Shown here: positions 19,114 to 42,518 of the stretch, one piece after another
How positions within the stretch are numbered: the stretch's first letter is position 1
Layout of the letters: each line of letters starts with the position of its first letter
Virus record (IMG/VR): IMGVR_UViG_3300047409_000754
Coordinates: 1 to 52,064 of that record
Strand: one strand, 5' to 3'
Length of the DNA stretch: 52,064 nucleotides
DNA from: a virus
Taxonomy: Duplodnaviria; Caudoviricetes
Notes under the pieces: generated by a model
The model's database searches: none
Told to the model about the DNA's origin: nothing
The model's input: only the letters and a program-made list of their open reading frames with translations
Made by a program: the position numbers and the translations under genes

Positions 19114-19376
19114 TGAAGCAGCGCCCCCTGCGCCTGCTGCTGAAACCACCTCCAAAGCAAGGCGGGCATCGTCGCGCCAGATTTCTGACGCGTCGATGTG
19201 GACTAAGTGAGGAACTGTAATGAAATCAATATATTAATTGCGGTCTGCCTCATCGGTTGTTTCGAACCCCACGACGAAATCGCGGCGACCGTCGATCGTT
19301 GACACCGTTTCACCACTGAAACTTTATGGCTTCGCTGCGGCGCGTCCGAATCGACGCGGACGATTGCCTGGAAAGA

Positions 19377-19601
19377 TCAGCCCTCGTCGTCGTTCACCGT
19401 TGGAGGTGTTCCGATCATCACGGGACTGTCCGTGTGAATGTCCCGCCAGAGCACGCCGTCGCTGTCCACGCCGAGGGTGAGCAGCATGATCCTCTTGCCG
19501 TACTCGGCGTTCGCGACGTTCACGCGGTCGTCGGGCGCGCTCGCGGCGGCAACGGACTGCCAGACCGGCTTCGTCTTGCGGGATCGTTTCGGCGTCTTCA
19601 T
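19377..19601 (-). CDS. Hypothetical protein
   Basis: MKTPKRS..., ATGA-coupled. Confidence 0.45.
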   Translation of the reverse strand: MKTPKRSRKTKPVWQSVAAASAPDDRVNVANAEYGKRIMLLTLGVDSDGVLWRDIHTDSPVMIGTPPTVNDDEG

Positions 19602-20371
19602 CGCGCCCCCGCAAATGGGAATTGCTTGAGAGACCACATCCAATCGGAGAGCCGCCCGCGCTTCCCCGGCATGCGCCCGCTGTCCTGCTTCACGAAGATC
19701 GGGATCCCTTGGTCGTGCAGGCGGTCCGCAAAGTCGACCGCGGAGTCGATGTCGAGCTCCCGGCGTTGGTCGTCGGGCCCGCTCTCTCCGCCGATGATCG
19801 CCCAATGAAGCAAGCGATCGCGTTCGACCGGCGGGCGCATCGGGCCCGGCATCATCGGTTCGACCGAGATGAACCGGACCATCGCGGGAACTTCACGCAG
19901 GAAACTCCATCGTTTGTCGAGGAGTTCCTGATTCTCGGTCGTGGTTCCCGCCCAGACGTTCGTGGGAAAGCCCCAGAGCCAGCTCTTCGGGACCGCGCCC
20001 ATGATGTTCTGGGGACGCTTCGTCAGCAGCAGCCAGTCAAGGTTCGGCGTCGCCTTGATCAGCGGCCAGAGACGATCCCGCTGCTCGGCGATCGTCGGAT
20101 GATCCTCGAACACATCAGCCATCGACGAGCAGAACACCCGGTGACGCTTTCCGATATCGCGGGCCATGCGATCCCACAGGATCGGCTCCTTCCAGTACTT
20201 GTCCGACAGGATCCGGCGCGCCGTCGTCTTAGGAGGCCCCCACACCGTGAGACCGACGCGCTTGGAAAAGGTCTCGGCATAGCAGTGGTCGCACGCCGCC
20301 GAGACCTTTTGGCAGCCCCACGCGACGTTGAACGTGTGGTGCGTCCAACCGATTTTGCTGTTCTCGCCCAT
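19598..20371 (-). CDS. Phage Gp37/Gp68 (DUF5131) family protein
   Basis: MGENSKIGWTHHTFN..GCQKVSAACDHCYAE, VFCSSMADVF, LLTKRP, FISVEP, IGGESG. Confidence 0.9.
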   Translation of the reverse strand: MGENSKIGWTHHTFNVAWGCQKVSAACDHCYAETFSKRVGLTVWGPPKTTARRILSDKYWKEPILWDRMARDIGKRHRVFCSSMADVFEDHPTIAEQRDRLWPLIKATPNLDWLLLTKRPQNIMGAVPKSWLWGFPTNVWAGTTTENQELLDKRWSFLREVPAMVRFISVEPMMPGPMRPPVERDRLLHWAIIGGESGPDDQRRELDIDSAVDFADRLHDQGIPIFVKQDSGRMPGKRGRLSDWMWSLKQFPFAGAR

Positions 20372-20461: not shown

Positions 20462-20866
20462 TCACCAGTTCGCGGGGTCGTTCTGATCGCCCTCGGGATT
20501 CGCCGGCGGCGTGGACGAGGCGGGCGCGCGCGCGCCGCCGTTCGACGCGCGGCTCGATCCTTCGGTCTTGATCGCGCGGACCGTCAGGCACGGCACCCAC
20601 TTCTCGCGCCCGTCGACCATGACCGGACTTCGATCCTTCGCGGTCACCTTCTCCATCTCGACGGCGCCCGTCACCTCGATGAGGGCACCGGGCTGCAGCG
20701 TCCCGATCTCCTCCACCATCTCCTTGAAGCCGCGGAGGTCGATCTTCTTTCCGTGGCCGTCGGCGAACACGTCGAGCGTCAGGAACGCGACCTTGCCCGA
20801 CTGGACCACGAAGCGGCGGACGACCGAGCCGCAGATCCGGAAGCCGGCACCCTGCGTGAAGCTCAC
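20462..20866 (-). CDS. Single-stranded DNA-binding protein-like (OB fold)
   Basis: Beta-rich body, flexible acidic tail ending in W, next to the recombinase gene. Confidence 0.55.
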   Translation of the reverse strand: MSFTQGAGFRICGSVVRRFVVQSGKVAFLTLDVFADGHGKKIDLRGFKEMVEEIGTLQPGALIEVTGAVEMEKVTAKDRSPVMVDGREKWVPCLTVRAIKTEGSSRASNGGARAPASSTPPANPEGDQNDPANW

Positions 20867-22398
20867 GAGAGACCTTCCATTTCCTCGAACGAGATGAGGC
20901 CGAGGGTCGCGCCCGGATACACGCGCCGCGCCAGCTTCGCCCCGGAGGACTTGACCAGCATGTCCTCTGGGTTCTTCCTCCAGCCAGTTCCGTCCTTCTT
21001 CAGAAGGCCGGCGAGCTCAGCCTGTTCGATGGTGAACGTGACCCTGGTCGAGCCTGGATTCCGGCGGTTCTTCGTTTCCCAGGTGGCCTTGGTTGCGCTC
21101 GCCTCGACGGGGTAAAAGTACTGGCAGTTGGGGTCGCGCTCGGCGAGGTGGATGATCAGATAGGCGTAGGGATACGGCTTCCCGTCGATGATGTGGAAGA
21201 CGTCAAGCGCCGCGGCCGACGGAATGCCCATCGACCGGCCGCGGATGATCGTCGCCAGGACCGACTCCCACGTCGGGAACTTCGAATAGATGCGCGAGTT
21301 GAACAGGTGTTTTGCTAGCGTCACGGCGCCGCTCGGGTCGCGCGGCTCCAGCGCGCGCTCGAACTCGACGGGCTGCGCTGGGATGACCGTAAGCTGGGTC
21401 GGGGCGGGCGCCGGGGTCGGTTCGTCCTTCACCTCGACGCGCTCGGCTGTCACCTCGGGGATGGGCGTTGCCGCGGGAGCCGGCGCGGCGGGCGACGGGA
21501 TCGACCCAGGCCCCTTGCTGATCGGGATGTCGTCGCTTTCCATGTCGTCGTTCTCCTCTGCTTTGACGAGCGGTTTCTTCGTGCGGGTCGCGTAGATCTC
21601 GCGGAAGTCGAACGGAACGTTCGTCCGCAGCTCGACGAGCTTGCGCGCGAGGCGCACGTCGGCCTCGGCCAGGTCGATGTTGGTCACGAACTTCGCGACC
21701 TCCTTGCCGCCGCTCTTGGATCCGACGTTCAGCGGGTCGGCGCTGATCTGGACGTAGAGCGCGTTCAGGTTTCCGAATCTCGTCAGCACGTCCGTTGCCG
21801 TCTTCGGGCCAACGTCGGGCGCCCCCTTGATCTCGTCGCTGGTGTCGCCGACGAGCGCAAGCCAGTCGCCGAGTTGCGCCGGCCGCACCCCGAACTTAGC
21901 CACCATCGCGGCTTCGTCCCACGTCGACCAGTCGTGCGTCCGAAGCTGCGTCACGCCGGGCCGAAGGAGCTGCATCAGGTCCTTGTCCGCCGAGCAAATC
22001 AGAACCTCGTGGCCAAGCGAGAGCGCCGTCTCGCATGCCGTGGCGATGACGTCGTCGGCTTCGTATCCATCGGCGCCCCAGATCAGGAACCCGTCGTAGC
22101 GCAGGCGCTCCTTGACCCGGTCAAGCGTCGCGTAGAAGTCGTTCCCGAGCTTCTCGCGCTTCGCCTTGTACGTCGGCGCCATCTCCTTGCGCCACGATTT
22201 GCGCGAGTCCATGCAGACCGCCACGAGCGATCCCTGGCTCGTGTTCGCGCAGCGCCACACAGCTTCGACGGTGGCCTGGTAAGCGACGCTGAGCGGTCCG
22301 TTCTCGTTCGCGCGCCATGCCGGGTGGAACAGCGACGAAAGGTCAATCAGGACGACCCGACGCACCTCGGACGGCACGGCCTGAGGCGCGGCAGTCAT
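20863..22398 (-). CDS. 5'-3' exonuclease fused to a RecT-like annealing domain
   Basis: N-term LID, YEADDVI, SADKDL, GDTSD..GAPDVGPKTA (H3TH); C-term GRSMGI..IIDGKP..AGL..WRKNPEDML. Confidence 0.75.
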   Translation of the reverse strand: MTAAPQAVPSEVRRVVLIDLSSLFHPAWRANENGPLSVAYQATVEAVWRCANTSQGSLVAVCMDSRKSWRKEMAPTYKAKREKLGNDFYATLDRVKERLRYDGFLIWGADGYEADDVIATACETALSLGHEVLICSADKDLMQLLRPGVTQLRTHDWSTWDEAAMVAKFGVRPAQLGDWLALVGDTSDEIKGAPDVGPKTATDVLTRFGNLNALYVQISADPLNVGSKSGGKEVAKFVTNIDLAEADVRLARKLVELRTNVPFDFREIYATRTKKPLVKAEENDDMESDDIPISKGPGSIPSPAAPAPAATPIPEVTAERVEVKDEPTPAPAPTQLTVIPAQPVEFERALEPRDPSGAVTLAKHLFNSRIYSKFPTWESVLATIIRGRSMGIPSAAALDVFHIIDGKPYPYAYLIIHLAERDPNCQYFYPVEASATKATWETKNRRNPGSTRVTFTIEQAELAGLLKKDGTGWRKNPEDMLVKSSGAKLARRVYPGATLGLISFEEMEGLS

Positions 22399-26325: not shown

Positions 26326-27162
26326 TTACTGACCGCCGTAGAATGAGATCTGCGACCCGGTCGCCTGCGGGGTCACGGTGAGGTTGCAGCCCGGGATGGA
26401 CACGCCCGCGTAATTGACGAAGGCGGGGTTCTGGTAGCTCGACGGCACAAACTGCACGTAGTGCGTGACCCCATCGACGGTCACGTAATAGTCGGTGTAC
26501 GACTGCACGCTCAAGTTGTTGGCCTGGGTCGCCCTCGGCAAGTCGCCCCAGCAATTGTGCCGGTTGGCTGGAATCAGAGGCTGCCACGTCGAGTCGGCGA
26601 GCATCTCGATGTAGGGCTTCTCGAAGGCGTCCACGTACGGACCGCTGTAGTCCACCCTGAGGTCGCGCGTGCCGTAGGGATACACGCCGCTGCCGTTGTC
26701 GTCGTAGATCTCGATGTACTCCGCCCCGTGCGCAATCGCATTGGCTGTGCCGGGGCCGAACCACGCCCAAGTGATCCGATCGCCGGGGTACGCTTTGAGC
26801 GAAGTGATCGGATCCCAGTTGACCCCCATGTTCTGCCCGACGGCTTCGACGTTGTAACCCCAGACCCATCGAGGCGGGAACGAGCCCGGGATGAGGACGC
26901 TCTCGGAGTTGAACGAGAAGTACATGGCCTCCCCAACGTTCGCGTTCTGATGAACCTGGAATTGCTGGATGACCTTCGAGATCGTGCCCGGGTTCTTCGG
27001 CGGAGGAGGCAAAACGTTCGCTTGCACGAAGCTGATGATCTGCTGTCCGGCGGGCAAATAGACAGCGTGATCCGAAGATGCATAGAGAGTCGTGCCTGTC
27101 GCCGACGAGGTGACTGGCAGGAGCAGAAGCGCGAGCGCGAGAAGGATTCGTTTGATGGTCAT
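26326..27162 (-). CDS. Secreted/periplasmic protein (278 aa)
   Basis: MTIKRILLALALLLLPVTSSA signal peptide; beta-rich; directly downstream of the tRNA array. Confidence 0.65.
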   Translation of the reverse strand: MTIKRILLALALLLLPVTSSATGTTLYASSDHAVYLPAGQQIISFVQANVLPPPPKNPGTISKVIQQFQVHQNANVGEAMYFSFNSESVLIPGSFPPRWVWGYNVEAVGQNMGVNWDPITSLKAYPGDRITWAWFGPGTANAIAHGAEYIEIYDDNGSGVYPYGTRDLRVDYSGPYVDAFEKPYIEMLADSTWQPLIPANRHNCWGDLPRATQANNLSVQSYTDYYVTVDGVTHYVQFVPSSYQNPAFVNYAGVSIPGCNLTVTPQATGSQISFYGGQ

Positions 27163-27200
27163 CGTGATCGTTGCCTTTCGTTGGTTTGGCCCGGGGACAG

Positions 27201-27276
27201 TGGAGCTGACGGCCGGCATCGAACCGGCAGCCTCCGCTTTACCGAAGCGGCGTTCTTCCTCTTGAACTTCGTCAGC
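27201..27276 (-). tRNA. tRNA-Thr(GGT)
   Basis: Cloverleaf, CCA encoded. Confidence 0.85.
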
Positions 27277-27277
27277 G

Positions 27278-27349
27278 TGGTGCCCCGGGCGGGATTCGAA
27301 CCCGCGCGCCGCTTTTAGGAGAAGCGGTCCGATCCATCCGGACCGGGGC
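27278..27349 (-). tRNA. tRNA-Arg(CCT), reduced D arm
   Basis: Acceptor, anticodon and T arms intact; CCA encoded. Confidence 0.75.
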
Positions 27350-27350
27350 G

Positions 27351-27875
27351 TCATGTCTCCAGCGCCGTCGACCAGTACGGCAGCCACTCCGCCGGCATCG
27401 GTCCCGACCCCATGCGCACGGTCACCGTCGGCAGGTAGTGCGGCTTCTTTGGGCGCGCGCGCAGCTCGAGCCCGGCTTCGGCCGGCGTGCGGTCGGCCTT
27501 GTCGCTGTTGCAGTCGACGCAGCACGTGACGATGTTCTCCCAGCACGTACGACCCCCGCGGCTGCGCGGGATCACATGATCGAAGGTCAGGTCTTCGGTC
27601 GGCTTGCGCGCGCCGCAGTACTGGCAGGCGAAGCCGTCGCGCGCGTAGATGTTAAGCCGCGAGAACTTGATCCGAATCCGGTCGCGGCGGAAGCGCCGCA
27701 CGACGCGCACAACCGACGGCATCGGCACCGCGCGCGACACCGTTTGGATCGTCCGGTCGCGGCTGTGCTCGACCACCTCGACCTTCCCGAGGAAGAGGTC
27801 CGAGATCGCGCGCTGCCAGCTTTCGACGCGAAGGGGGCGGTAGTCGACATCCAGGAACAGCACGGCGGCGGACAT
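27351..27875 (-). CDS. HNH endonuclease (McrA-like)
   Basis: RDGFACQYCG, LTFDHVIPRSRGG, NIVTCCVDCNSDK; AAGGAG RBS. Confidence 0.9.
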   Translation of the reverse strand: MSAAVLFLDVDYRPLRVESWQRAISDLFLGKVEVVEHSRDRTIQTVSRAVPMPSVVRVVRRFRRDRIRIKFSRLNIYARDGFACQYCGARKPTEDLTFDHVIPRSRGGRTCWENIVTCCVDCNSDKADRTPAEAGLELRARPKKPHYLPTVTVRMGSGPMPAEWLPYWSTALET

Positions 27876-27890
27876 CGGATCTCCTTTGGT

Positions 27891-27966
27891 TGGTGGGCCC
27901 GCCCCGATTCGAACGGGGAACACGGCCGGTTTGAGCGGCCTGCCTCTGCCGTTGAGCTACGGGCCC
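27891..27966 (-). tRNA. tRNA with CAA anticodon (Leu?) lacking the long variable arm
   Basis: GGCCG-CTCAAAC-CGGCC, 5-nt variable loop, CCA encoded. Confidence 0.75.
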
Positions 27967-27968
27967 GA

Positions 27969-28055
27969 TGGTACGCGTGACTGGATTCGAACCAGCATTG
28001 GGCTTTCGCCACACGGTTTCTAAGACCGTTGAGTAGACCGTTCCTCCACACGCGC
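27969..28055 (-). tRNA. tRNA-Leu(TAG)
   Basis: Long variable arm, CCA encoded. Confidence 0.85.
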
Positions 28056-28060
28056 GTGCG

Positions 28061-28132
28061 TCTCGGCGCCTGGAATCGAACCAGGTTCGTCCGCTTATAA
28101 AGCAGCCGCACGCACCAGCGTGCTACGCCGAG
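28061..28132 (-). tRNA. tRNA-Ile(TAT)
   Basis: Anticodon loop TT-TAT-AA, cloverleaf. Confidence 0.7.
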
Positions 28133-28133
28133 A

Positions 28134-28207
28134 TGGCGCTGCGTACGGGGATCGAACCCGTCTCACTCGGGAGACAACCGAGCCGCGCCCCAGGCGCGTC
28201 ACGCAGC
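28134..28207 (-). tRNA. tRNA-Asp(GTC)
   Basis: Cloverleaf, G73, CCA encoded. Confidence 0.8.
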
Positions 28208-28212
28208 AGAAG

Positions 28213-28281
28213 TACCGCCGGCGGGAGTCGAACCCGCAGGTCCTCGGTTCGGAGCCGGGGATCCGATCCATCGGCGACGGC
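28213..28281 (-). tRNA. tRNA-Arg(CCG), reduced D arm
   Basis: CT-CCG-AA loop, T arm intact. Confidence 0.7.
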
Positions 28282-28282
28282 G

Positions 28283-28353
28283 TACGCCCGGAGAGATTCG
28301 AACTCTCAAAGGCCGCCTTAGAAGTGCGGCTGCCGTCCGATCGGCGCGGGCGC
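28283..28353 (-). tRNA. tRNA-Arg(TCT), atypical
   Basis: CT-TCT-AA loop with a 31-39 mismatch. Confidence 0.65.
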
Positions 28354-28358
28354 GGAAA

Positions 28359-28808
28359 TCAAGCTCCGGGAGAAGGACTCGCACCTTCACTTCTCGGCGT
28401 AACAGGCCGGCGTGCTGCTTTGACACTATCCCGAAAAAACTGATGTTGGGCGGAACAGGATACCGAGCAAAAAAGAAACCCTCGCTTTGAGTGCTTGAGC
28501 CTCCAGCGCGCCCTGTTCGGCCGAAGCTTGAATTCTGTTTCGCACGTTGGGCAAATCGTCACGACCGATGGCGGAGCGCGCTCCAGTGAGTGATCGCGGG
28601 TATGTTCCGCCACCGTCTTCAATTCGAAATTGTCGAACCGATTGTCGCGTTTGTTCTCGTTCTTGTGGTGGATCAACTCGCCGGGCCTCGGCACCGTTCC
28701 GGTGTGCTGCCACCACACGAGATGATGTTCATAGCAGTACCGCCCGCGGTATTTCTTGCCCGGGTACTCGGCCGGCGCGATCACCAATTCGTAGGGGCCG
28801 TTCCGCAT
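28359..28808 (-). CDS. HNH homing-endonuclease-like protein with Zn finger
   Basis: YEHHLVW...IHHKNENKRDNRFDNFEL; CPTC...FCSVSC. Confidence 0.85.
   Translation of the reverse strand: MRNGPYELVIAPAEYPGKKYRGRYCYEHHLVWWQHTGTVPRPGELIHHKNENKRDNRFDNFELKTVAEHTRDHSLERAPPSVVTICPTCETEFKLRPNRARWRLKHSKRGFLFCSVSCSAQHQFFRDSVKAARRPVTPRSEGASPSPGA
28364..28435 (-). tRNA. tRNA-Asn(GTT)
   Basis: CT-GTT-AC loop, TGCGAGT T-loop; lies inside the 3' end of the HNH ORF. Confidence 0.75.
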
Positions 28809-28860
28809 AATTCGACCCGTTAGGGAACGCGATGCCGGTTGTCCAGAGCCAAGTTAACGG

Positions 28861-28930
28861 AGCCGATCCGCAGAATCGAACTGCGCCGAGTGAGGTACAA
28901 ATCCCCTCGAGCTGCCCAGAGACGATCGGC
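28861..28930 (-). tRNA. tRNA-Thr(TGT), degenerate
   Basis: Acceptor and T arm good; anticodon stem poorly paired. Confidence 0.5.
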
Positions 28931-28931
28931 G

Positions 28932-29024
28932 TAACGGGGGCCGGAGTCGCACCGGCTTTCTCCAGGTTATGAGCCTGGCGAGATTTGGACGGCTCGAGGC
29001 CGCCCTCTGTTTCTCCACCCCGCA
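28932..29024 (-). tRNA. Initiator-like tRNA-Met(CAT) with an extra hairpin in the D loop
   Basis: 1:72 mismatch, CCAGG-CTCATAA-CCTGG, D-loop insert GGGCGGC-CTCGA-GCCGTCC. Confidence 0.65.
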
Positions 29025-29025
29025 G

Positions 29026-29097
29026 AGCTTCCGCCGAGAATCGAACTCGGTTCTTCCGGGTACGGGCCGGATGCGTCGCCAGCAACGCTTCAGAAGC
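29026..29097 (-). tRNA. tRNA-Thr(CGT)
   Basis: Cloverleaf; C at position 33. Confidence 0.75.
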
Positions 29098-29105
29098 ACG
29101 AACTC

Positions 29106-29174
29106 GGCCGGCGCGCGCGCCAGAACGTCGAGGGGGAGTACCTCGACGGAGGAACCAGCACTACGCGACCGGCC
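29106..29174 (-). ncRNA. Non-tRNA hairpin RNA, possibly Y-RNA-like
   Basis: GGCCGG/CCGGCC outer stem; GTGCTGG/CTGGCGC helix followed by TTCCTCC; apical 8-bp stem. Confidence 0.35.
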
Positions 29175-29185
29175 TTCTTTTTCAG

Positions 29186-29256
29186 AGCACGGTGCGGGAA
29201 TCGAACCCGCGTTGCCTGCTTGGAAGACAGGATCTCAGCCACTAAGACAACCGTGC
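29186..29256 (-). tRNA. tRNA-Gly(TCC)
   Basis: Cloverleaf, U73. Confidence 0.85.
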
Positions 29257-29260
29257 ATTG

Positions 29261-29332
29261 AGCGACCAGCGGGAGTTGAACCCGCTCTCTCGGACTGGCA
29301 GACCGATGTGCAGCCACAAACACCTTGGTCGC
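29261..29332 (-). tRNA. tRNA-Gly(GCC)
   Basis: Cloverleaf, U73. Confidence 0.8.
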
Positions 29333-29333
29333 G

Positions 29334-29408
29334 TGGAGGACGATCGCGGAATCGAACCGCGGATTGCGGAGGTTGCAGCTCCGTGCCTTGCCACTTGGCG
29401 AATCGTCC
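29334..29408 (-). tRNA. tRNA-Cys(GCA)
   Basis: Cloverleaf, U73, CCA encoded. Confidence 0.9.
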
Positions 29409-29413
29409 GTGAG

Positions 29414-29497
29414 AGGAGAGGGCGGGGATCGAACCCGCGCGACTGTCGTCGGCCTCGGTTTAGCAAACCGGCATCGTTACCACTCGATCACCTCTCC
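29414..29497 (-). tRNA. tRNA-Ser(GCT)
   Basis: Long variable arm. Confidence 0.85.
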
Positions 29498-29498
29498 G

Positions 29499-29567
29499 TA
29501 CCAGCGGGCGGTGTTGATCCGCCCAAGCAGCCCGTATGAAAGGCCGCCGCGCGCCGGCGCCGCTGGC
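29499..29567 (-). tRNA. tRNA-Met/Ile2(CAT), atypical
   Basis: TT-CAT-AC loop, ATCAACA T-loop, reduced D arm. Confidence 0.55.
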
Positions 29568-29571
29568 GTCG

Positions 29572-29641
29572 TACCCCCGAGAGGATTCGAACCTCCAGAG
29601 CCTGCGTTCGTAGCGCGGGCCGCCTTCCAATCGCCGGGGGC
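29572..29641 (-). tRNA. tRNA-Arg(ACG), reduced D arm
   Basis: CT-ACG-AA loop. Confidence 0.7.
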
Positions 29642-29642
29642 A

Positions 29643-29720
29643 TGGTCACCTGTGCGGGATTTGAACCCGCGTCTCCTGGATGAGAACCAGAGATCCTAAG
29701 CCGGACTAGACGAACAGGTG
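29643..29720 (-). tRNA. tRNA-Glu(CTC)
   Basis: Cloverleaf, CCA encoded. Confidence 0.85.
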
Positions 29721-29721
29721 A

Positions 29722-29795
29722 TGGTCACGCGTGCGGGTGTTGATCCCGCCTCGCCGGATTGAAAGCCCGGCTGCCTCACCGGAAGCGAACGCGTG
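29722..29795 (-). tRNA. tRNA-Glu(TTC)
   Basis: CT-TTC-AA loop, ATCAACA T-loop, CCA encoded. Confidence 0.7.
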
Positions 29796-29798
29796 TTG

Positions 29799-29882
29799 AG
29801 GAGAGCTGAGGAGTCGAACCCCCAACCCGAAGGTTGCCCCCGGTGTTCGAAACCGGTTGGCGCCCGCGCGCCGGAACTCTCC
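29799..29882 (-). tRNA. tRNA-Ser(CGA)
   Basis: Long variable arm with UUCG loop. Confidence 0.75.
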
Positions 29883-29886
29883 GTTG

Positions 29887-29954
29887 CGCACCGTCGAGGT
29901 GTCGATCCCCGTTGACAGGTTTTGGAGGCCCGTCTGCTTGCCGAAGCACAGTGC
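29887..29954 (-). tRNA. tRNA-Trp(CCA), atypical
   Basis: CT-CCA-AA loop, G73, ATCGACA T-loop, short D arm. Confidence 0.6.
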
Positions 29955-29959
29955 AATCG

Positions 29960-30028
29960 TGGACCGCCCGAGAGTTGAACTCGGCACTCAGATCTTGCAA
30001 GGATCCGATGCGCCCCGGCGCGCAGCCC
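29960..30028 (-). tRNA. tRNA-Ala(TGC), reduced D arm
   Basis: G3:U70 identity pair, CT-TGC-AA loop. Confidence 0.7.
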
Positions 30029-30162
30029 GTGGACCCCGTTACGGGGGTCAGTCGTTCCGGACGCGGATTTCCCCGACCGGACGTCAGGGTGAGTGCCGCA
30101 ACCCGAAGGTTGCACCGAGAGGCAGGTGCGCCGCGCTTCCGTGTTCCTCTCGGCATGGCGAG

Positions 30163-30234
30163 TCTGCGCGGGGTGAATCGAACACCCGATCTCCTCGTCC
30201 CAAGCGAGGCGCCTTTCCACTAGGCTACGCGCAG
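30163..30234 (-). tRNA. tRNA-Pro(TGG)
   Basis: Cloverleaf, C1:G72, A73. Confidence 0.85.
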
Positions 30235-30244
30235 ATGCTTCCAG

Positions 30245-30317
30245 GGTGACCGCCCGGTTTCGATCCGGGACCTCGACGTTCACAGCGTCGAATGCAGAGC
30301 CACTACACCACGGCCAC
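30245..30317 (-). tRNA. tRNA-His(GTG)
   Basis: C73; no genomic G-1; ATCGAAA T-loop. Confidence 0.75.
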
Positions 30318-30319
30318 AG

Positions 30320-30390
30320 TTCCCGCAGATGGATTCGAACCACCGTTGCCTGGGTCAGAACCAGGGAGCCTGCCGCTAGCTGATGCGGGA
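30320..30390 (-). tRNA. tRNA-Gln(CTG)
   Basis: U1:A72, TT-CTG-AC loop. Confidence 0.8.
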
Positions 30391-30391
30391 G

Positions 30392-30463
30392 TAGAGGCGG
30401 GAGGATTCGAACCTCTCGTCGGGCGGTAATCGGCCGCCTGCACTGCCATTGTGCTACGCCTCC
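30392..30463 (-). tRNA. tRNA-Ile(GAT)
   Basis: Cloverleaf; CC-GAT-TA loop. Confidence 0.75.
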
Positions 30464-30469
30464 GTGCTG

Positions 30470-30540
30470 TCCGAGCTGGGGGAATCGAACCCGCGTCTCC
30501 GGTTTGTAGGACCGGGGCCCTCCCATTGGACGAAGCTCGG
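30470..30540 (-). tRNA. tRNA-Val(TAC)
   Basis: CC-TAC-AA loop, A73. Confidence 0.75.
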
Positions 30541-30612
30541 GGAAACTGCGGCGCGGACTTGGGTTGCGTCCGCCTTGCGTCGATGCGCTCTTGAGACCAG
30601 CATCAAACCAGG

Positions 30613-30686
30613 TGCCCCGCCGCGGAATCGAACCGCGCCCTCCGCGTTTTCAGCGCAGCGCTCGTCACCTCGAGAGCTTGCGGGGC
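30613..30686 (-). tRNA. tRNA-Phe(GAA)
   Basis: Cloverleaf. Confidence 0.85.
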
Positions 30687-30726
30687 ATTGTCGGCGGGGT
30701 TGGTCGCCCCGCCACCTTCACGTCAA

Positions 30727-30763
30727 CTATTTAGTTGTCAGAGAATCGCCGGTGCTACCGGCG
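30727..30763 (-). promoter_or_regulatory. rrn-type boxB/boxA-like antitermination site
   Basis: Hairpin CGCCGGT-AGC-ACCGGCG followed by TTCTCTGACAACTAAATAG. Confidence 0.5.
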
Positions 30764-30767
30764 TTTG

Positions 30768-30837
30768 TTCGAGGGGAAGGGGTCGAACCTTCACCAACCG
30801 CTTCAAAGGCGGTCTGCCTGCCGTTAGCTACCCTCGA
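30768..30837 (-). tRNA. tRNA-Gln(TTG)
   Basis: U1:A72, CT-TTG-AA loop. Confidence 0.8.
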
Positions 30838-30850
30838 TCGTTTCCATTTG

Positions 30851-30922
30851 TGAGCCGCCGGCGACTTGAACGCCGCTGTCCTGATTAAGAGTCAGGTCCC
30901 TCGCCATCTAGGGGTGCAGCCC
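30851..30922 (-). tRNA. tRNA-Lys(CTT)
   Basis: CCTGA-CTCTTAA-TCAGG. Confidence 0.85.
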
Positions 30923-30968
30923 GTTGTCTCTGCCGTTAGGGAAGGTTCTCCTTTCTGTCAACCTGCTG

Positions 30969-31041
30969 TGCCTCGAGTCGGATTCGAACCGACGATTCAG
31001 CGCTTAAAAGGCGCGGGTGATTGCCGCTTCACTACCGAGGC
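30969..31041 (-). tRNA. tRNA-Lys(TTT)
   Basis: CT-TTT-AA loop, cloverleaf. Confidence 0.85.
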
Positions 31042-31046
31042 TGAAG

Positions 31047-31129
31047 TGGGCGGCCCAGGAATCGAACCTGGTAGGGGATCTCCCCGGCTGCTTTACAGGC
31101 AGTTGCCCCGACCATGAGGCGCGTCGCCC
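31047..31129 (-). tRNA. tRNA-Tyr(GTA)
   Basis: Long variable arm; first gene of the array. Confidence 0.85.
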
Positions 31130-31160
31130 AAACGAAAAAAGGCCGCCCCGGTGGGCAGCC
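31130..31160 (-). terminator. Intrinsic terminator (attenuator) directly upstream of the first tRNA
   Basis: GGCTGCCC-ACCG-GGGCGGCC-TTTTTTCGTTT. Confidence 0.8.
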
Positions 31161-31191
31161 CTGATCGCGTTCTCGAGATTGTTGCCTCGAC

Positions 31192-31350
31192 TTACACGAC
31201 CGGCCGCCCTTCCCCTTTGGCCCTGAACTCTTGGGAATACGAGATCAGGGCTGACGGGAGCGTGGCGTTCTGATCCTTGCGGACGCGCGGCAACGCCGCG
31301 GAGGCGGTATGCCCCTGCTGCGCCATCGACCATGTCCGCGAGCTCGTCAT
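31192..31350 (-). CDS. Putative 52-aa leader (attenuator) peptide
   Basis: MTSSRTWSMAQQGHTASAALPRVRKDQNATLPSALISYSQEFRAKGEGRPVV*; last five codons complementary to the terminator 5' arm. Confidence 0.6.
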   Translation of the reverse strand: MTSSRTWSMAQQGHTASAALPRVRKDQNATLPSALISYSQEFRAKGEGRPVV

Positions 31351-31359
31351 TGCCAACCC

Positions 31360-31388
31360 AAGGTGAACGGACGAAACGCGGGCGTCAA
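31360..31388 (-). promoter_or_regulatory. Putative sigma70 promoter of the tRNA operon
   Basis: TTGACG-N17-CACCTT, 9 nt before the leader ATG. Confidence 0.5.
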
Positions 31389-31397
31389 GCGGAAAGT

Positions 31398-31907
31398 TCA
31401 GGCGACGCGCAGATAGCCCGCGAGTTTGCGGGCCTGCGGGAACGGGAACCCGCGCTCAACGACCGCGTTGCCCTCGCGCGCGCCCTCAAGATTCGTGTTG
31501 CCCGCAATGACCTCGATCGAAGCCAACTCGGCGCCGACGCGCGTCACACCGGTGATGATTCCGACGTGCCCCTTGCCGCCGCCATGGTCCCAAACGACCA
31601 GCCCGCCCATCTCTGGCTCGGCAATGACCAGGTCGTGATTCAGCTCGAGCAACCGCAGTGCGCCGGCGCTGTAGCGCAGATGCGTGACGATCCCCATCGC
31701 GCGCGCGGCGTCGTGAATCTGCGCGCTCGCGAACGCCGCGCACCACAGGGCCGGCTGCATGATCCCGCGCTCGGCAAGCCACTCGCGGATCATCGGCCCA
31801 TCGTTGGGGCCGTCGGTCTCCAGCGACTTGCCGATCGCGTACCGGCGCGCGTTGGCGATCGTGAGCTCGGCGAGGCCTGGAACGGGGCCGATCACGGGTG
31901 CCACCAA
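31398..31907 (-). CDS. CHAP-domain endolysin
   Basis: WCAAFAS, GHVGII, IAGNT. Confidence 0.8.
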   Translation of the reverse strand: MVAPVIGPVPGLAELTIANARRYAIGKSLETDGPNDGPMIREWLAERGIMQPALWCAAFASAQIHDAARAMGIVTHLRYSAGALRLLELNHDLVIAEPEMGGLVVWDHGGGKGHVGIITGVTRVGAELASIEVIAGNTNLEGAREGNAVVERGFPFPQARKLAGYLRVA

Positions 31908-31992
31908 GGCATCCGCATCGGGTAGGACCGTGAGCCCTGGACGTCACCGATCAGGAACCAGTATCGAGGCCCATGCGAGCGACAAGAACGCG

Positions 31993-32460
31993 TCACGGGT
32001 GCGCCACCGACCACGCCTGAAGATGGTTCATCATCAGCGCCTCGGCGGGCGGCGGGGATGGGGGCCGACGCAGCGCCAGCAGCTCGCTGGCGGACGCCTT
32101 GATCACGCAGAACTCCTTGTTGATCGCCCCCGGCGATAGCGCCGCCTCATAGTCTTCGCCGACGGCGGCCAAGCCAACGTCGAAGAGATCCTGCGTCGTC
32201 ACGTTGCACTTCGCCTCGACGGCGGCCAGGTGCGCGCAGCCGATCGCATGGGCCCCGACGACGCTCACGAAGACGGCGAACAGCAGATTGACGGCGCCGT
32301 TGGTGTCGAGCTTGGCGAAGGCTTTGCGGGCGTCAGCGATCAGCAGCGCCAACGCGCCGCCGATCGCCGCGTACCTTGGGATCGCGGACAGCACGGACGC
32401 GACGACCGTTGCGCCGCCGAGAACGACGAGAGCGAGATGGGCGAGTCGAGATTTCATCAT
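31993..32460 (-). CDS. Membrane protein (holin/spanin-like)
   Basis: Two to three hydrophobic segments, next to the lysin. Confidence 0.5.
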   Translation of the reverse strand: MMKSRLAHLALVVLGGATVVASVLSAIPRYAAIGGALALLIADARKAFAKLDTNGAVNLLFAVFVSVVGAHAIGCAHLAAVEAKCNVTTQDLFDVGLAAVGEDYEAALSPGAINKEFCVIKASASELLALRRPPSPPPAEALMMNHLQAWSVAHP

Positions 32461-32736: not shown

Positions 32737-33048
32737 TCATTTGCGTTTGCTGAGTAGCTGGTCGAGCTTGTAGTCGACGAGCTTGTTGTGTTCTTCGACC
32801 GCCTTCGATTCGGCGGATTTCGCGTCGGCCTCGGCCGCTTTGATCGCCGCCTGGGCCGCGAGCTTCTCTTTGACGCTCGCCATGTCGTCGCGCATCTGGT
32901 TCCACGCCGGGCCGTCTGGCATGCGGGCGATGGTGACGATCACCGGGATGCCGGCGGCGATGATGCCGCCCAACATCCCGACGACGGCTAGGATCCATCC
33001 AGGGATCCCGCCGCGAAGATTTGGAACGTCATCCATCATCGCGCTCAA
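32737..33048 (-). CDS. Single-TM coiled-coil protein (lysis-associated)
   Basis: N-terminal TM segment followed by coiled coil. Confidence 0.55.
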   Translation of the reverse strand: MSAMMDDVPNLRGGIPGWILAVVGMLGGIIAAGIPVIVTIARMPDGPAWNQMRDDMASVKEKLAAQAAIKAAEADAKSAESKAVEEHNKLVDYKLDQLLSKRK

Positions 33049-33782
33049 CTCAGCGTCAAAGCGCCCAGCACAACGCTCGACAGGAACTGCTGCCCCACCG
33101 TCGCGTTCGGGTGGAGCCCGTGGATGTCGCCCACGCGGCTCAGGATGCCGCCGTCAGCGCCGCCAGCGCCGGCGGGCGGGTTGTGCGTCGACTCGTAGAT
33201 CAGCGACGGGCCCGACAGCTCGACGTACGTGCAGAACGACGAGCGAGCCGCGACGATGGGCGCGGTGAGCGAGTTGTACCCGAAATTGGGGCCGGTCGTT
33301 GACGTCAGGAACCAGGTCAACGGGTTCGTGTTGTTCCACTGCTCGCCGTAGAACGGGTCGCTCATGCAGATGATCTGGCAGCCGGGGACGGCGGCATGCA
33401 TCCCGTCGAGCAGCGACGCATATTGCGTCGAGAACGTCGCTGGATTGGTTGCCAGGATCACATCGTTGATCCCGACCCACAGGAAGCAATATTCTGGCGC
33501 GAACGTCGTGAAGCGGCCCGGGATGTCGGCCAGGATGTCGGCCACGACGTTGCCAGAGACGCCCGATTGCGTGACGCGGATGCCCTGCGCGCCGGGTGCC
33601 CGGCCCCGACCAATCAGATCGAGGCGCGGCGGCGCCGGTGCCGTCGCGGGCGTGCTGTCCAGCGCGATCCAGGCGGCGTGAAGTTGATCGAGCAGCGCGC
33701 CATTGGCGTACCACCAGCCGTCCACAGTTCGCGAATCGCCGAGGAAGTGAGACTTGTTGCCCCTCGGGTACGGCAGCCCCAC
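33045..33782 (-). CDS. SGNH/GDSL hydrolase (probably virion-associated esterase)
   Basis: FLGDS, GVSG, GIND and GLHPN blocks. Confidence 0.8.
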   Translation of the reverse strand: MGLPYPRGNKSHFLGDSRTVDGWWYANGALLDQLHAAWIALDSTPATAPAPPRLDLIGRGRAPGAQGIRVTQSGVSGNVVADILADIPGRFTTFAPEYCFLWVGINDVILATNPATFSTQYASLLDGMHAAVPGCQIICMSDPFYGEQWNNTNPLTWFLTSTTGPNFGYNSLTAPIVAARSSFCTYVELSGPSLIYESTHNPPAGAGGADGGILSRVGDIHGLHPNATVGQQFLSSVVLGALTLS

Positions 33783-37566: not shown

Positions 37567-39380
37567 CAGTGCCCGATGTCGTCGACGGCCGAGCCGCCGT
37601 TGTTCGCGATGCTGTCGAGGTACTGCTTCGCGCGCGCGCGCGCCAGCGTCGGCGCCTTCGGATCGTTCAGGACGCGCTGAGCCGCGGCAGCCTTGCCGCC
37701 GGGCACCGCCGTTGCGCCGCCGCCCCCCTCGAGACCGGCCGTACGCTGTTTGCCGATGCCCTTGGGATCCTGGATCGCGCGCTGCTCGGCGACAAGACCT
37801 GGTAGCGCCTTCTCGCGGCGCCGCACTTCGGCCTCGGACAGGCCAGGGATGTAGGGGCTGTACCGATCGCGGTACTGCTCGAGCGTCTCGATGTTCTTGC
37901 CCTGCTGCATCTCGGTCAGGTGTGTGATCACCTGCTCGGCGGCCGTCACCTTCTTTTGCTGATCTTCGGGGATCCCGTCGTAGCGCCCGCGCGCCGTCAA
38001 GCCGATGCCGCGCGAGAAGCGCGCACCCAGGTTGCCGAGTACGCCACTGGTCGCCGAGTGCTCCGCGCCCTTGGCCTGCTCCTCGTTGCTCTGGAGCTTA
38101 TTGATCGTGTCCATCGAGACGACGCCTGGCGTGATGTCCTTGGCGGCCTTCTCGGCCTCGGCGAGGTTCCCGAGCACTGCGTTCTGCCGAACGCTGCCCA
38201 TGCTCCCGCCCGCGCCGCCGTTCGCGGCCTTCTCGGATGCGCGCACGTTCGCAAGCGACGGGAGATAATCCTTCGGCTTCATGCCGAGTTGGGCAGCCCG
38301 CGCGGCGATCTCACTGTCGGGCGCGCCGTCCTCCTTCATCTTCACGAGCTCAGGAACGCCTTTCGCGGCTGCGCCGCCGGTCCCCACACGCCCCATCTTG
38401 CGCGCGTACGCCTCGGCCTTCAGCCGCTCGTCGGCCTCCTTCTGCTTTTCGATCTCCAGCTTCGCATCCTCGAGATTCATCGAGTGGACGTCCTTGAGCG
38501 TCCCGAGGCGAAGCTGGTTCGCCTTCTGCTTGAGCGCGACCACGTCGGCATCGTTCTGCGCCTGCTCGACGGGAACGCCCTGGCGCACCCGAAGCGCCGC
38601 AAGCTTGGCGGCAGCAGCATCGGTCGCGGCGGCTTCCTTCAGCTTGGCGTCGCTGAGCGCCTGTTCCTTCTCGGTGAGGCCCGCCTTGTACTGCTCATTT
38701 GCGGCGCCAACGTTCGCCTTCTGCTTTTCGATCCGCGCCTGCTGCATGCGGAAATCGCGCTCGATCGCCTGATTGATCATGTTCAGGCCGGCGTTGCCGC
38801 TGTTGTCGGTGCGCCCGACCGCGCCGAGGATCATCGCCAACCCGCCGAGCACCTTGGACCCAGTCGACTTGTCGGCCCAATAGTCATGAAGATCCATCTT
38901 CATGAACTTTTCGTTTTCGCCCTGCGCGCGATCCGCCCACTGCTGCGTCTTCTGGTTCGCGGCCTGCGTGATCTGCGCCTGCTCGTCAGCGGCGTCCTGC
39001 CGGCGCTGGGCGTCGGCGTCCATGGCGTCGGCAGTCGCGTTGCCCGCCGCCGCCTTCACGTCGCCCAACTTATGCTGGGCGGCTACGTCGTCGGCGCCGA
39101 GTTGCTGCTGGTCAGCGTATCCCTGTGCGGTCTGTTGAGACACGTTGACGGGCGGGGCCGCCGCGGGCGCTTGCGGCTGTTGCGGCGCGCTTGGCGTTGC
39201 ACGTGGAACCATGCCGGGCGCTTCGGACGGAACTTCTGGCGGCCACACGTCTGGCATCCGGCCGTTGCTGGCGCCGGCCGGCAGAGGCTGCGCGTTCACG
39301 CGGTCGACGATCGTCTCGGGCTCGGGCCCCTCGTAAACGGGCGGCTTCTTGTCCTCGTCCTCTTCTTCGTCACCGATCAT
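37566..39380 (-). CDS. Putative internal virion/ejection protein
   Basis: 604 aa A/Q-rich coiled coil with a hydrophobic GGLAMILGAVG segment. Confidence 0.6.
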   Translation of the reverse strand: MIGDEEEDEDKKPPVYEGPEPETIVDRVNAQPLPAGASNGRMPDVWPPEVPSEAPGMVPRATPSAPQQPQAPAAAPPVNVSQQTAQGYADQQQLGADDVAAQHKLGDVKAAAGNATADAMDADAQRRQDAADEQAQITQAANQKTQQWADRAQGENEKFMKMDLHDYWADKSTGSKVLGGLAMILGAVGRTDNSGNAGLNMINQAIERDFRMQQARIEKQKANVGAANEQYKAGLTEKEQALSDAKLKEAAATDAAAAKLAALRVRQGVPVEQAQNDADVVALKQKANQLRLGTLKDVHSMNLEDAKLEIEKQKEADERLKAEAYARKMGRVGTGGAAAKGVPELVKMKEDGAPDSEIAARAAQLGMKPKDYLPSLANVRASEKAANGGAGGSMGSVRQNAVLGNLAEAEKAAKDITPGVVSMDTINKLQSNEEQAKGAEHSATSGVLGNLGARFSRGIGLTARGRYDGIPEDQQKKVTAAEQVITHLTEMQQGKNIETLEQYRDRYSPYIPGLSEAEVRRREKALPGLVAEQRAIQDPKGIGKQRTAGLEGGGGATAVPGGKAAAAQRVLNDPKAPTLARARAKQYLDSIANNGGSAVDDIGH

Positions 39381-42391: not shown

Positions 42392-42518
42392 GGGTGGCGT
42401 AGCTCAGTGGTAGAGCGCGCATCCGGTCCCTAAATTTTGTTCGTGAAAACGAGCCGCTTGGAGCCGGTTATCTTCAACAGATCGAGGTCGTTGGTTCGAG
42501 TCCAACCGCCGCCCACCA
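42392..42518 (+). ncRNA. tRNA-like Y RNA (YrlA-like, circularly permuted, CCA end)
   Basis: 8-bp acceptor plus ACCA, canonical D and T arms, anticodon arm replaced by a ~65-nt domain with a CCGG/CCGGTTATCTTC helix. Confidence 0.7.

Follow-up and report, generated by a model that had tools for sequence, protein, structure and literature searches.

An HNH-associated array of tRNA genes for all 20 amino acids in the genome of an uncultured soil virus

Genes of the array

The record IMGVR_UViG_3300047409_000754 represents a whole soil virus (52,064 bases, ∼67% G+C), and its full length, referred to here as the window, was analysed. The genes of the window lie mostly on the minus strand, as does a dense array of tRNA genes at 27201-31129, in which two open reading frames (ORFs) for HNH proteins are embedded (27351-27923 and 28359-28808). 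ARAGORN at its default setting found 28 tRNA genes in the array, each on the minus strand; the rest of the 52,064 bases yielded none. The relaxed setting -ps90 raised the number to 32 by adding Arg-TCT, Met-CAT, Trp-CCA and a Thr-like gene (28859-28930), and a 33rd gene, an initiator-like Met-CAT (28932-29024), was seen by both the Rfam tRNA model (23.4 bits) and the array-family model (40.1 bits, E 3.5e-8). We distinguish, then, 28 confident tRNA genes, four low-scoring ones and one initiator-like gene with an enlarged D arm. The Rfam tRNA gathering score was reached by 19 of the 33, while the array-family model matched 28 at E ≤ 0.01, the exceptions being Met, Trp, Ala, Ser-CGA and the Thr-like gene. 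No amino acid is missing from the set, Met and Trp being found only with the relaxed threshold. An earlier, first-pass annotation had described an array of 33 tRNAs for all 20 amino acids, and both ARAGORN settings, Rfam and the family model bore this out. The 28-33 genes lie within 3,929 bases, or 7.5% of the genome. A nucleotide search with the array against cultured phages and plasmids returned nothing close, and in its distant mode only single-tRNA matches with 1-3% coverage.

The genes are described below in array order along the minus strand; tRNA genes were called by ARAGORN at its default setting unless stated otherwise, and homologous arrays, introduced in the next section, carry L numbers. 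The first gene is tRNA-Tyr(GTA) with a long variable arm (31046..31129; family model 26.6 bits), followed by tRNA-Lys(TTT) (30968..31041; 56.2 bits) and tRNA-Lys(CTT) (30850..30922; family model 48.9 bits, no Rfam tRNA match), so that the Tyr, Lys, Lys start given in the first-pass annotation stands. Next come tRNA-Gln(TTG) with a U1:A72 pair (30767..30837), tRNA-Phe(GAA) (30611..30686; Rfam 44.8 bits), tRNA-Val(TAC) (30469..30540) and tRNA-Ile(GAT) (30391..30463), both with C33, and tRNA-Gln(CTG) (30319..30390). In tRNA-His(GTG) (30244..30317), C73 and the T-loop ATCGAAA (A54, A60) are accompanied by T at position -1, not G, which is a correction. tRNA-Pro(TGG) (30162..30234; 65.9 bits) is the most canonical member. 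tRNA-Ala(TGC) (29959..30028) has G3:U70 and a D region of 15 nt, and matched neither the Rfam tRNA model nor the family model R1; tRNA-Trp(CCA) (29886..29954; -ps90 only, 91.3) also has a 15-nt D region, together with the T-loop ATCGACA. These are followed by tRNA-Ser(CGA), with a long variable arm and T73 (29798..29882), tRNA-Glu(TTC), with the T-loop ATCAACA (A54, A60) and an encoded CCA (29722..29795), tRNA-Glu(CTC), also with CCA (29643..29720), and tRNA-Arg(ACG), with a 16-nt D region (29571..29641). tRNA-Met(CAT) (29498..29567; -ps90 only, 94.1) combines a 15-nt D region, whose 5-nt loop lacks GG, with the T-loop ATCAACA. Then follow tRNA-Ser(GCT) with a long variable arm and T73 (29413..29497), tRNA-Cys(GCA) with CCA (29334..29408), tRNA-Gly(GCC) (29260..29332), tRNA-Gly(TCC) (29185..29256) and tRNA-Thr(CGT) with C32 and C33 (29025..29097).

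Two genes of the array are unusual. The initiator-like tRNA-Met(CAT) (28932..29024) has a U1×U72 mismatch, A73, the T-loop TGCGACT (G55) and a 28-nt D region containing an extra 7-bp hairpin; its orthologue in L011 is canonical, with C1×A72, and the function of the window gene is doubtful. The Thr-like gene (28859..28930) has G1:C72, T73, a short D arm and an 8-nt anticodon loop, AUUUGUAC, and was called Gln-TTG by ARAGORN -ps90 (93.2). It occupies the position of Thr-TGT in L014 and L049, and its acceptor stem is Thr-like, but the 8-nt loop precludes a safe assignment. ARAGORN reads similar 8-nt loops elsewhere as four-base anticodons: aatg twice in L016 (9013-9166), ttat in L107 and cgta in L045. 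Such genes could be frameshift-suppressor-like tRNAs or damaged genes.

The remainder of the array begins with the ORF of an HNH_3 protein of 149 amino acids (28359..28808, minus strand; PF13392, E 3.5e-12), whose 3′ end overlaps tRNA-Asn(GTT) (28363..28435). The latter has the D-loop CAAAGCA (A18 G19) and the T-loop TGCGAGT (G55), and the tRNA-Asn of L045 shows the same pair of changes, A18 and G55. Downstream are tRNA-Arg(TCT) with a 17-nt D region (28282..28353; -ps90, 96.6; family model 39 bits), tRNA-Arg(CCG) of only 67 nt, with a 12-nt D region and a 3-nt loop (28212..28278), tRNA-Asp(GTC) with T at position 37 and CCA (28134..28207), tRNA-Ile(TAT) (28060..28132), and two leucine genes with CCA, of which tRNA-Leu(TAG) has a long variable arm (27969..28055) and tRNA-Leu(CAA) a variable loop of 5 nt instead, with A73 (27891..27966). 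Directly 3′ of tRNA-Leu(CAA) is the ORF of an HNH endonuclease of 190 amino acids (27351..27923, minus strand; HNH_5, E 7.6e-18). tRNA-Arg(CCT), with a 16-nt D region (27278..27349), and tRNA-Thr(GGT), with C33 (27201..27276), both with CCA, complete the array.

The D regions singled out above, measured as the stretch between acceptor and anticodon stem, compare with a normal length of 18-21 nt. Besides these short D arms, the T-loops beginning ATC or TGCG, C33 and scarce encoded CCA (8 of 32 genes) had been listed in the first-pass annotation, as had the identity elements Ala G3:U70, His C73 and Gln U1:A72, and all were found; the C33 of Thr-GGT is an addition to that list.

Some spacers of the array are also structured. 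Those at 29098-29184, 30687-30766 and 30029-30161 (minus strand) form stable hairpins compared with shuffled sequences (z -3.6, -3.8 and -2.4, respectively) that are not tRNA-like, while the structure of the 70-nt spacer at 30541-30610 is not unusual (z -0.8). The structured spacers could be processing signals, small RNAs or relics.

Homologous arrays and maintenance of tRNA structure

Nucleotide searches did not lead to homologous arrays: BLAST of the whole array against five portal-related virus records gave no match, and neither did the exact 20-mer of the odd Met T arm in IMG/VR. The 190-amino-acid HNH protein of 27351..27923 was used as the anchor, and this worked where BLAST of the array DNA had not, the homologous arrays being too diverged. 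IMG/VR holds 21 relatives of the protein, and six of the first eight loci scanned for tRNAs held them. Among these is L011, whose 33 tRNAs stand in nearly the order of the window, from Tyr-Lys-Lys through Arg-CCT-Thr-GGT. In metagenomes, 13 of the best 80 of 586 HNH relatives carry arrays, with 4-32 tRNAs each, and in species genomes at least three tRNAs were found at 10 of the best 80 of 593. The labels of these ten genome loci are seven Myxococcota lineages, one Deltaproteobacteria, one Gemmatimonadaceae and, for L137, Kofleriaceae (Myxococcota). HNH identity is 51-72% to the proteins in arrays of viral and metagenome contigs and, among the best 80 genome loci, reaches 65% on a Polyangia contig with 30 tRNAs from a metagenome-assembled genome (MAG). 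More distant members of the same HNH family lie within a 28-tRNA array on a Mycolicibacterium alvei plasmid (40% identity) and behind a tRNA-Leu cluster in Virus Rctr197k (41.6%). Array carriers thus comprise viral contigs, one plasmid and MAG contigs of at least three phyla, and a link of the window array to Myxococcota is likely. Two Myxococcota MAGs of 10 Mb, Labilithrix and Kofleriaceae, carry long arrays (G007:C22:84625-93388 and G006:C2:96149-98807), whose members score 30-64 bits with Rfam, compared with up to 73.5 bits for the dispersed tRNAs of the same two MAGs.

The content and order of the arrays vary, with blocks gained and lost. The Tyr-Lys-Lys block recurs in L011, L044, L069, L107 and L126, while L043, L044 and L069 lack both the initiator-like and the Thr-like gene as well as the second HNH ORF, no ORF occupying the position of 28359..28808 there. 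L014 was excluded from the HNH protein alignment because of a stop inside the frame. In 23 of the 31 loci with an upstream tRNA, and in the window besides, the gene directly upstream of the HNH ORF is a tRNA-Leu, including L133 and L142, which have one or two tRNAs. This arrangement suggests that the HNH endonuclease homes beside tRNA-Leu genes.

In order to distinguish eroded from maintained genes, stem pairing was compared across 333 tRNAs from 19 arrays (ARAGORN default, 7-nt T-loops), after L015, a duplicate of L011, and L051 and L122, with two tRNAs or fewer, had been dropped. The stem test covered 33 anticodon groups with at least five members (301 tRNAs), and as a control the 5′ strand of each stem was paired with the 3′ strand of another member of its anticodon group. 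Own pairing was 98.4% in the acceptor stem, 97.3% in the anticodon stem and 98.2% in the T stem, and cross-pairing 60.9, 56.2 and 69.0%, respectively; since ARAGORN selects for paired stems, own pairing is high partly by construction and only the contrast with cross-pairing carries weight. Compensatory double changes were found at 194 of 231, 154 of 165 and 122 of 165 positions of the three stems. The stems of the window itself are paired at 195 of 196 acceptor, 132 of 140 anticodon and 137 of 140 T positions, and orthologues of its tRNAs are 57-90% identical. A count of U8 was dropped as unreliable because ARAGORN parses shift in genes with short D arms.

Tertiary pairs provide evidence that is independent of the gene finder. 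In the 19 arrays, 22 of the 23 tRNAs with G55 in the T-loop have AG in place of the D-loop GG, compared with a missing GG in 8 of the 310 others (Fisher p 1e-26). The test was repeated on nine genome-borne arrays that had not been used before (200 tRNAs, L137 with its three tRNAs having been dropped), where GG is missing from 25 of 32 G55 tRNAs and from 1 of 168 others (p 2e-24); the remaining seven G55 tRNAs have AGGAG-type loops. A covariance-model alignment of 104 tRNAs gave the combinations G/U 79 times, A/G 12 times and G/C three times at positions 18 and 55, and neither A/U nor G/G, and by mutual information position 55 is linked most strongly to position 18 (0.53 bits, compared with 0.19 for the next). 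The G55 tRNAs span about 20 isoacceptor types, so the double change must have arisen many times. The window Asn and initiator-like Met are of this A18/G55 type. Further elbow changes are also matched: each of three T-loops with U56 occurs with the D-loop GA (A19), and A54 is partnered either by U58 (atcgtta, atcatac and, in phage Bxz1, atcgtaa) or by A58 together with A60. These patterns indicate selection on the array tRNAs for folding into the L shape. The first-pass annotation had taken the deviations for something other than decay and had proposed covariation in homologous arrays as a check; the paired stems with their compensatory changes at 57-90% identity, together with the 18-55 pair, agree with it, and this covariation leads us to reject decay for the array as a whole.

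Many of the oddities are tied to certain isoacceptors. In 12 other arrays there is a Met-CAT with a D stem of 3 bp and a loop of 4-6 nt, odd or short D arms are seen again in the Trp of other arrays, the D region of Arg is 16 nt or less in 11 of 35 cases, and the short D arm of the window Ala is seen also in L011 and L016. Over the 19 arrays, the window included, C33 occurs in Thr-CGT (7/12), Val-GAC (4/6), Val-TAC (4/9) and Ile-GAT (5/11), and is absent from Arg (0/35), Asp (0/12) and Gln (0/15). The three commonest Asp-GTC loops of other arrays are ctgtcta (13 times, T37), ttgtcga (three) and ttgtctc (two, T37), where housekeeping tRNA-Asp has A37. A54 in tRNA-His is shared by the window, L044, with the same T-loop ATCGAAA, and L069 (ATCGTTA). 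Bacterial tRNA-Leu normally has a long variable arm. It is missing from 39 of the 59 tRNA-Leu of the 19 arrays and from 16 of 21 in the genome-borne arrays, these genes being 73-77 nt long with a variable loop of 4-5 nt and A73 kept. tRNA-Leu of class I length is also found outside the set, once as annotated in Streptomyces phage Bmoc and several times in Virus Rctr197k. Private to the window are A54/A60 in Glu-TTC and Met, and Glu-TTC has T54 in all 15 other arrays read. Lack of conservation had been named beforehand as what would count against function; it applies to these two cases, while many of the other deviations recur in orthologues.

As a control, 37 housekeeping tRNAs were taken from two array-holding Myxococcota genomes of 10 Mb. 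U33 and GG were present in 37 of 37, and neither G55 nor a short D arm was seen. The C33 of Val, Ile and Thr and the T37 of Asp in the array differ from these tRNAs, the MAGs being a stand-in that may not be the host. The oddities are a trait of mobile tRNA sets that is stronger in the HNH-associated family, not one unique to the window, and the non-standard shapes are maintained, structurally compensated variants typical of the array family.

Possible role of the array

Portal proteins 76-84% identical to that of the window are encoded by nine IMG/VR contigs, and none of the five portal-related records searched, three of them 98-100% complete at 52-54 kb, holds a tRNA above the Rfam cut-off. 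In the three relatives compared gene by gene (G001, G002 and G004), whose capsid proteins are 85-93% identical to that of the window, synteny is confined to structural and replication genes, and they do not share the region of the array (22-35 kb). The array is thus an accessory acquisition. The same relatives (L032-L040) span 58.6% to 67.0% G+C despite their similar capsids, and may have hosts of differing base composition.

Our preferred reading, held with moderate confidence, is that the array is a functional, horizontally mobile, HNH-associated tRNA cassette that most likely keeps phage translation going when host tRNAs become limiting. The phage lineage would have acquired the array, which its close structural relatives are without, and with it a nearly self-sufficient set for decoding. 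Under standard wobble rules, 49 of the 61 sense codons are read, or 82% of the codons of the phage; if a U34 can read all four codons of a box, the figure rises to 57 of 61 (99%), leaving TTA, TCA, TCC and TCT unread. This auxiliary pool could sustain translation of phage genes once host tRNAs are depleted, cleaved or otherwise limiting, and the embedded HNH endonuclease, found 3′ of tRNA-Leu in most arrays, probably spreads the cassette by homing. We infer that the array tRNAs are expressed, charged and used as a backup. The term backup set had been used in the first-pass annotation; with all 20 amino acids, 49-57 of 61 codons and a composition not tuned to phage codon usage it is plausible.

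Several observations weigh against this reading. A search for promoter-like sites in 26500-32000 found none, and the first gene is immediately preceded by a terminator-like hairpin and T run (31139..31162, minus strand; a 10-pair stem with the tail TTTTTTCGTTT, 10 nt upstream of tRNA-Tyr). The hairpin is a consensus match only, and terminator-like sites are not enriched in the region (four, compared with a shuffle mean of 4.8). Some members look impaired, namely the gene with the 8-nt anticodon loop (28859-28930), the one with the enlarged D arm (28932-29024) and tRNA-His with T-1. Relatives of similar genome size and codon usage manage without tRNA genes, which indicates that the cassette is dispensable for this type of virus. 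Finally, the oddities are just as frequent in chromosome-borne arrays and are consequently a property of the arrays, not of phage life, and the stem pairing owes part of its height to the gene finder, as noted above.

A largely selfish cassette under weak selection is a serious rival, which we regard as possible rather than probable. Here HNH homing would maintain the array, its tRNAs would be kept foldable by weak selection with little or no benefit to the phage, and the oddities would be slightly deleterious changes that were later compensated. Two HNH ORFs within the array, the position of the HNH 3′ of tRNA-Leu in 23 of 31 loci, the absence of the array from all five portal relatives, its poor fit to phage codon usage, the coming and going of blocks between arrays, the impaired look of some members and Rfam scores below those of housekeeping tRNAs in the same genome all speak for such an element. 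However, a useless cassette taking up 7.5% of a capsid-limited 52-kb genome should vanish fast, and pairing is held at 97-98% across 10-43% sequence divergence. Nor does weak selection sit easily with double changes so tightly coupled that neither A18/U55 nor G18/G55 intermediates are seen, or with oddities that stay with their isoacceptors (C33 in 0 of 35 Arg compared with 7 of 12 Thr-CGT; the short-D Met in 12 other arrays).

A bolder form of the preferred reading, which we put forward tentatively and think rather doubtful, is that the pool is a "stealth" one, in which the elbow, D arm, Leu variable arm and flanks of the anticodon loop have been re-engineered so that the tRNAs translate yet evade defence nucleases and modification or surveillance enzymes; the altered parts would be those recognised by proteins outside the ribosome and the synthetases. 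The elbow changes in question are G18/U55 to A18/G55, G19/C56 to A19/U56, and U54/A58 to A54/U58 or to A54/A58 with A60; to these may be added the trimmed D arms of Met, Trp, Arg and Ala, the deletion of the long variable arm of Leu, C33 and U37. That such shapes make the array tRNAs poor substrates for host tRNA-cutting enzymes, in line with the nuclease resistance proposed in the first-pass annotation, is speculative. Human SLFN11 offers an analogy for nucleases specific for tRNAs with long variable arms, and evasion of enzymes of that kind by the short tRNA-Leu would be pure speculation. A bacterial Schlafen is described as cleaving the anticodon arms of Lys, Ala and Met tRNAs and, by the same account, not class II tRNAs (PMC13056530). 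If the stealth reading were true, a small integrase-bearing phage would gain immunity to tRNA-directed defence in one step, with the cassette.

Phage tRNAs are classically explained by supplementation, in which they serve codons more frequent in the phage than in its host (PMC10264068), and the set does contain tRNAs for codons ending in A or U, which high-GC genomes seldom use (Ile-TAT, Leu-TAG, Arg-TCT, Lys-TTT and Val-TAC). Supplementation is nevertheless improbable here. The codon usage of the phage is of an ordinary high-GC type, almost identical to that of the tRNA-less relative G004 (67% GC), which makes supplementation unlikely. Among its 11,798 codons, ATA occurs three times, CTA 15 times and AGA 20 times, and Ile-TAT is kept nonetheless; per 1000 codons, ATA stands at 0.3, CTA at 1.3, AGA at 1.7, GTA at 2.6 and ACA at 1.5, which is equal to or less than in G004. 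The set also spans all 20 amino acids, including their commonest codons. A near-complete set on a small virus with tRNA-less relatives, and without a reason in codon usage, argues for replacement of the tRNA pool and against supplementation.

Less probable still is tRNA-dependent lysogeny, in which the phage integrates into an essential tRNA gene of the host, the gene is not restored, and a phage tRNA takes its place. The mechanism is documented in actinobacteriophages (PMC10865867) and the window does encode a tyrosine integrase (18070-19155), but a single tRNA would suffice where the array has 33, integrase-bearing relatives are without tRNA, and no tRNA-like attP fragment was found around the integrase, including an A+T-rich stretch at 19205-19250, the best score being 11 bits (E 0.05). 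That stretch (plus strand) lies inside a 440-base gap beside the integrase gene in a genome otherwise of 67% G+C, and is a candidate for the attP core. Mutational erosion of an array that once functioned, which would explain the 14 of 33 genes under the Rfam tRNA threshold, the structured, non-tRNA-like spacers of 70-133 nt and the two doubtful members, is for the array as a whole just as improbable, being at odds with stem and tertiary covariation over 19 + 9 arrays and with the nearly complete pairing of the window stems, and is possible for 28859-28930 and 28932-29024.

Long tRNA arrays have been known on mobile elements, and the anti-defence idea as such has been published as a hypothesis, both for anticodon loops (PMC10264068) and for array units (PMC12803027). 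What seems new is the carrier, a 52-kb integrase-bearing virus in which tRNAs take up 7.5% of the genome but whose relatives are without them, the probable link to Myxococcota, and the occurrence throughout the array family of elbow changes with compensation, of trimmed D arms and of short tRNA-Leu. A published account of A18 with G55 in the T-loop was not found in a search that excluded subscription journals and supplementary files, and a term search of a review of T-loop nucleotides (PMC7912444) gave no mention of G55 or A18; a literature search on the variable arms of actinobacteriophage tRNA-Leu found nothing relevant. The odd shapes are not noise, as they recur by isoacceptor over dozens of arrays and G55 is coupled to A18 among 55 tRNAs. 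The array family offers natural, diverse tRNAs of these shapes for probing the needs of synthetases, RNase P, the CCA enzyme, modification enzymes and defence nucleases, and its members may serve as scaffolds for orthogonal tRNAs.

Other genes of the virus and comparison with known systems

Outside the array, the window encodes an SU10-type portal (87-1997), a RecE/RecT-like protein (20863-22398), a CHAP-domain lysin (31398-31907), a GDSL lipase (33045-33782) and a tail fibre with an S74 chaperone domain (39377-42238). A DUF5131 protein (19598-20371, minus strand; E 2.5e-53) adjoins the integrase. The portal, capsid and lipase proteins had no match among 50,697 deposited phage records, and a search with the portal in 185,579 species genomes found no prophage relative. 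Among sequencing runs, two DNA runs from soil metagenomes contained all and 13%, respectively, of the words searched, and one of them may be the source of the record; no RNA run was listed with them. The virus belongs to an uncultured lineage; an early guess that it was an actinobacteriophage found no support.

Two further pairs of elements are of note. A nicotinamide phosphoribosyltransferase-like protein (9952-11454, minus strand; phrog_448, E 8.6e-187) adjoins a protein with a phosphoribosyltransferase (PRPS-like) domain (11421-12239, minus strand). The phage NAD+ reconstitution pathway NARP1 is described as a pair of Namat and Adps genes, and by their domains the two window genes form a Namat-like and PRPS-like pair of that kind, possibly a second counter-defence module. 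Such a pair fits an accessory anti-defence load and proves nothing about the tRNAs. Elsewhere in the window, a tRNA-like element of 122 nt (42393-42514, plus strand) lies 18 nt upstream of a gene for a Ro60/TROVE protein (42532-44142, plus strand). It has an acceptor stem, a D arm and a T arm, with a 63-nt insertion in place of the anticodon arm, and scores 44.5 bits with the Rfam tRNA model and only 20.1 bits with YrlA. The element and its neighbouring gene look like a phage-borne pair of Ro protein and Y RNA, the latter a tRNA mimic. A Ro-like gene near tRNAs is also found in Streptomyces phage Bmoc.

Among cultured phages, Mycobacterium phage Bxz1 (cluster C1), Streptomyces phage Bmoc, T4 and T5 resemble the window virus in carrying many tRNAs among HNH or Seg-type endonucleases. 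Bxz1 likewise has C33, in its Val-CAC and Val-GAC, as well as A54, in the T-loop atcgtaa of its Gly and Asp tRNAs, and Bmoc has a tRNA-Leu of 76 nt and the Ro-like gene near its tRNAs. These large phages differ in being lytic, with genomes of 133-156 kb and more dispersed tRNAs, whereas the window has 33 genes in 3.9 kb and an integrase; the regions read in Bxz1 and Bmoc contain no G55 and 0-1 short D arms, compared with one and four in the window at the default threshold. Variants of the anticodon loop in phage tRNAs have been argued to evade VapC, PrrC and colicins (PMC10264068), and the tRNA-Tyr and tRNA-Lys of T5 have been reported to counter retron Eco7 (PtuAB) and PARIS (PMC12673091, PMC11464382). 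The likeness to T5 is positional only, in that Tyr, Lys and Lys start the window array and several homologous arrays.

Short D arms and tRNA-Leu of class I length are known from metazoan mitochondria, and eukaryotic initiator tRNA has A54 together with A60. A54-A58 is described for eukaryotic tRNAiMet (PMC7912444). Both groups are of unrelated origin, and most of the short-D members of the window keep GG and a normal T-loop.

The closest parallels are long arrays associated with homing endonucleases. The L-arrays, exemplified by the trn operon of Anabaena, are likewise long, non-periodic and horizontally transferred, with a neighbouring homing endonuclease and supernumerary tRNAs redundant with those of the host, and the Anabaena arrays are described as functional (PMC8421152). 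That array differs in being a host operon induced by translational stress (PMC8421152), where the window array is borne by a virus. Nostoc is the commonest genus among plasmid matches of the window HNH (12 of 97 records), and one Acaryochloris match that was examined did not lie inside a tRNA array. The mycobacterial "tRNA array units" of plasmids, phages and chromosomes share at least 26-28 same-strand tRNAs for 19-20 amino acids with one embedded HNH, which is described as conserved, and a putative antidefence role has been proposed for them (PMC12803027). The example compared directly, on the M. alvei plasmid pJCM12272 (L123), encodes an HNH that belongs to this family, 40% identical over 75% of the query, but its gene order is another, without the Tyr-Lys-Lys start and with Met preceding the HNH. 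With 28-33 dense same-strand genes, all 20 amino acids, an HNH of the family and a patchy distribution, the portal relatives of its carrier being without tRNAs, the window array is an HNH-associated long tRNA array (tRNA array unit or L-array). It differs from the mycobacterial units in its carrier, a 52-kb integrase-bearing virus without a cultured relative, and in that its nearest HNH and array relatives are found in Myxococcota MAGs, not in mycobacteria.

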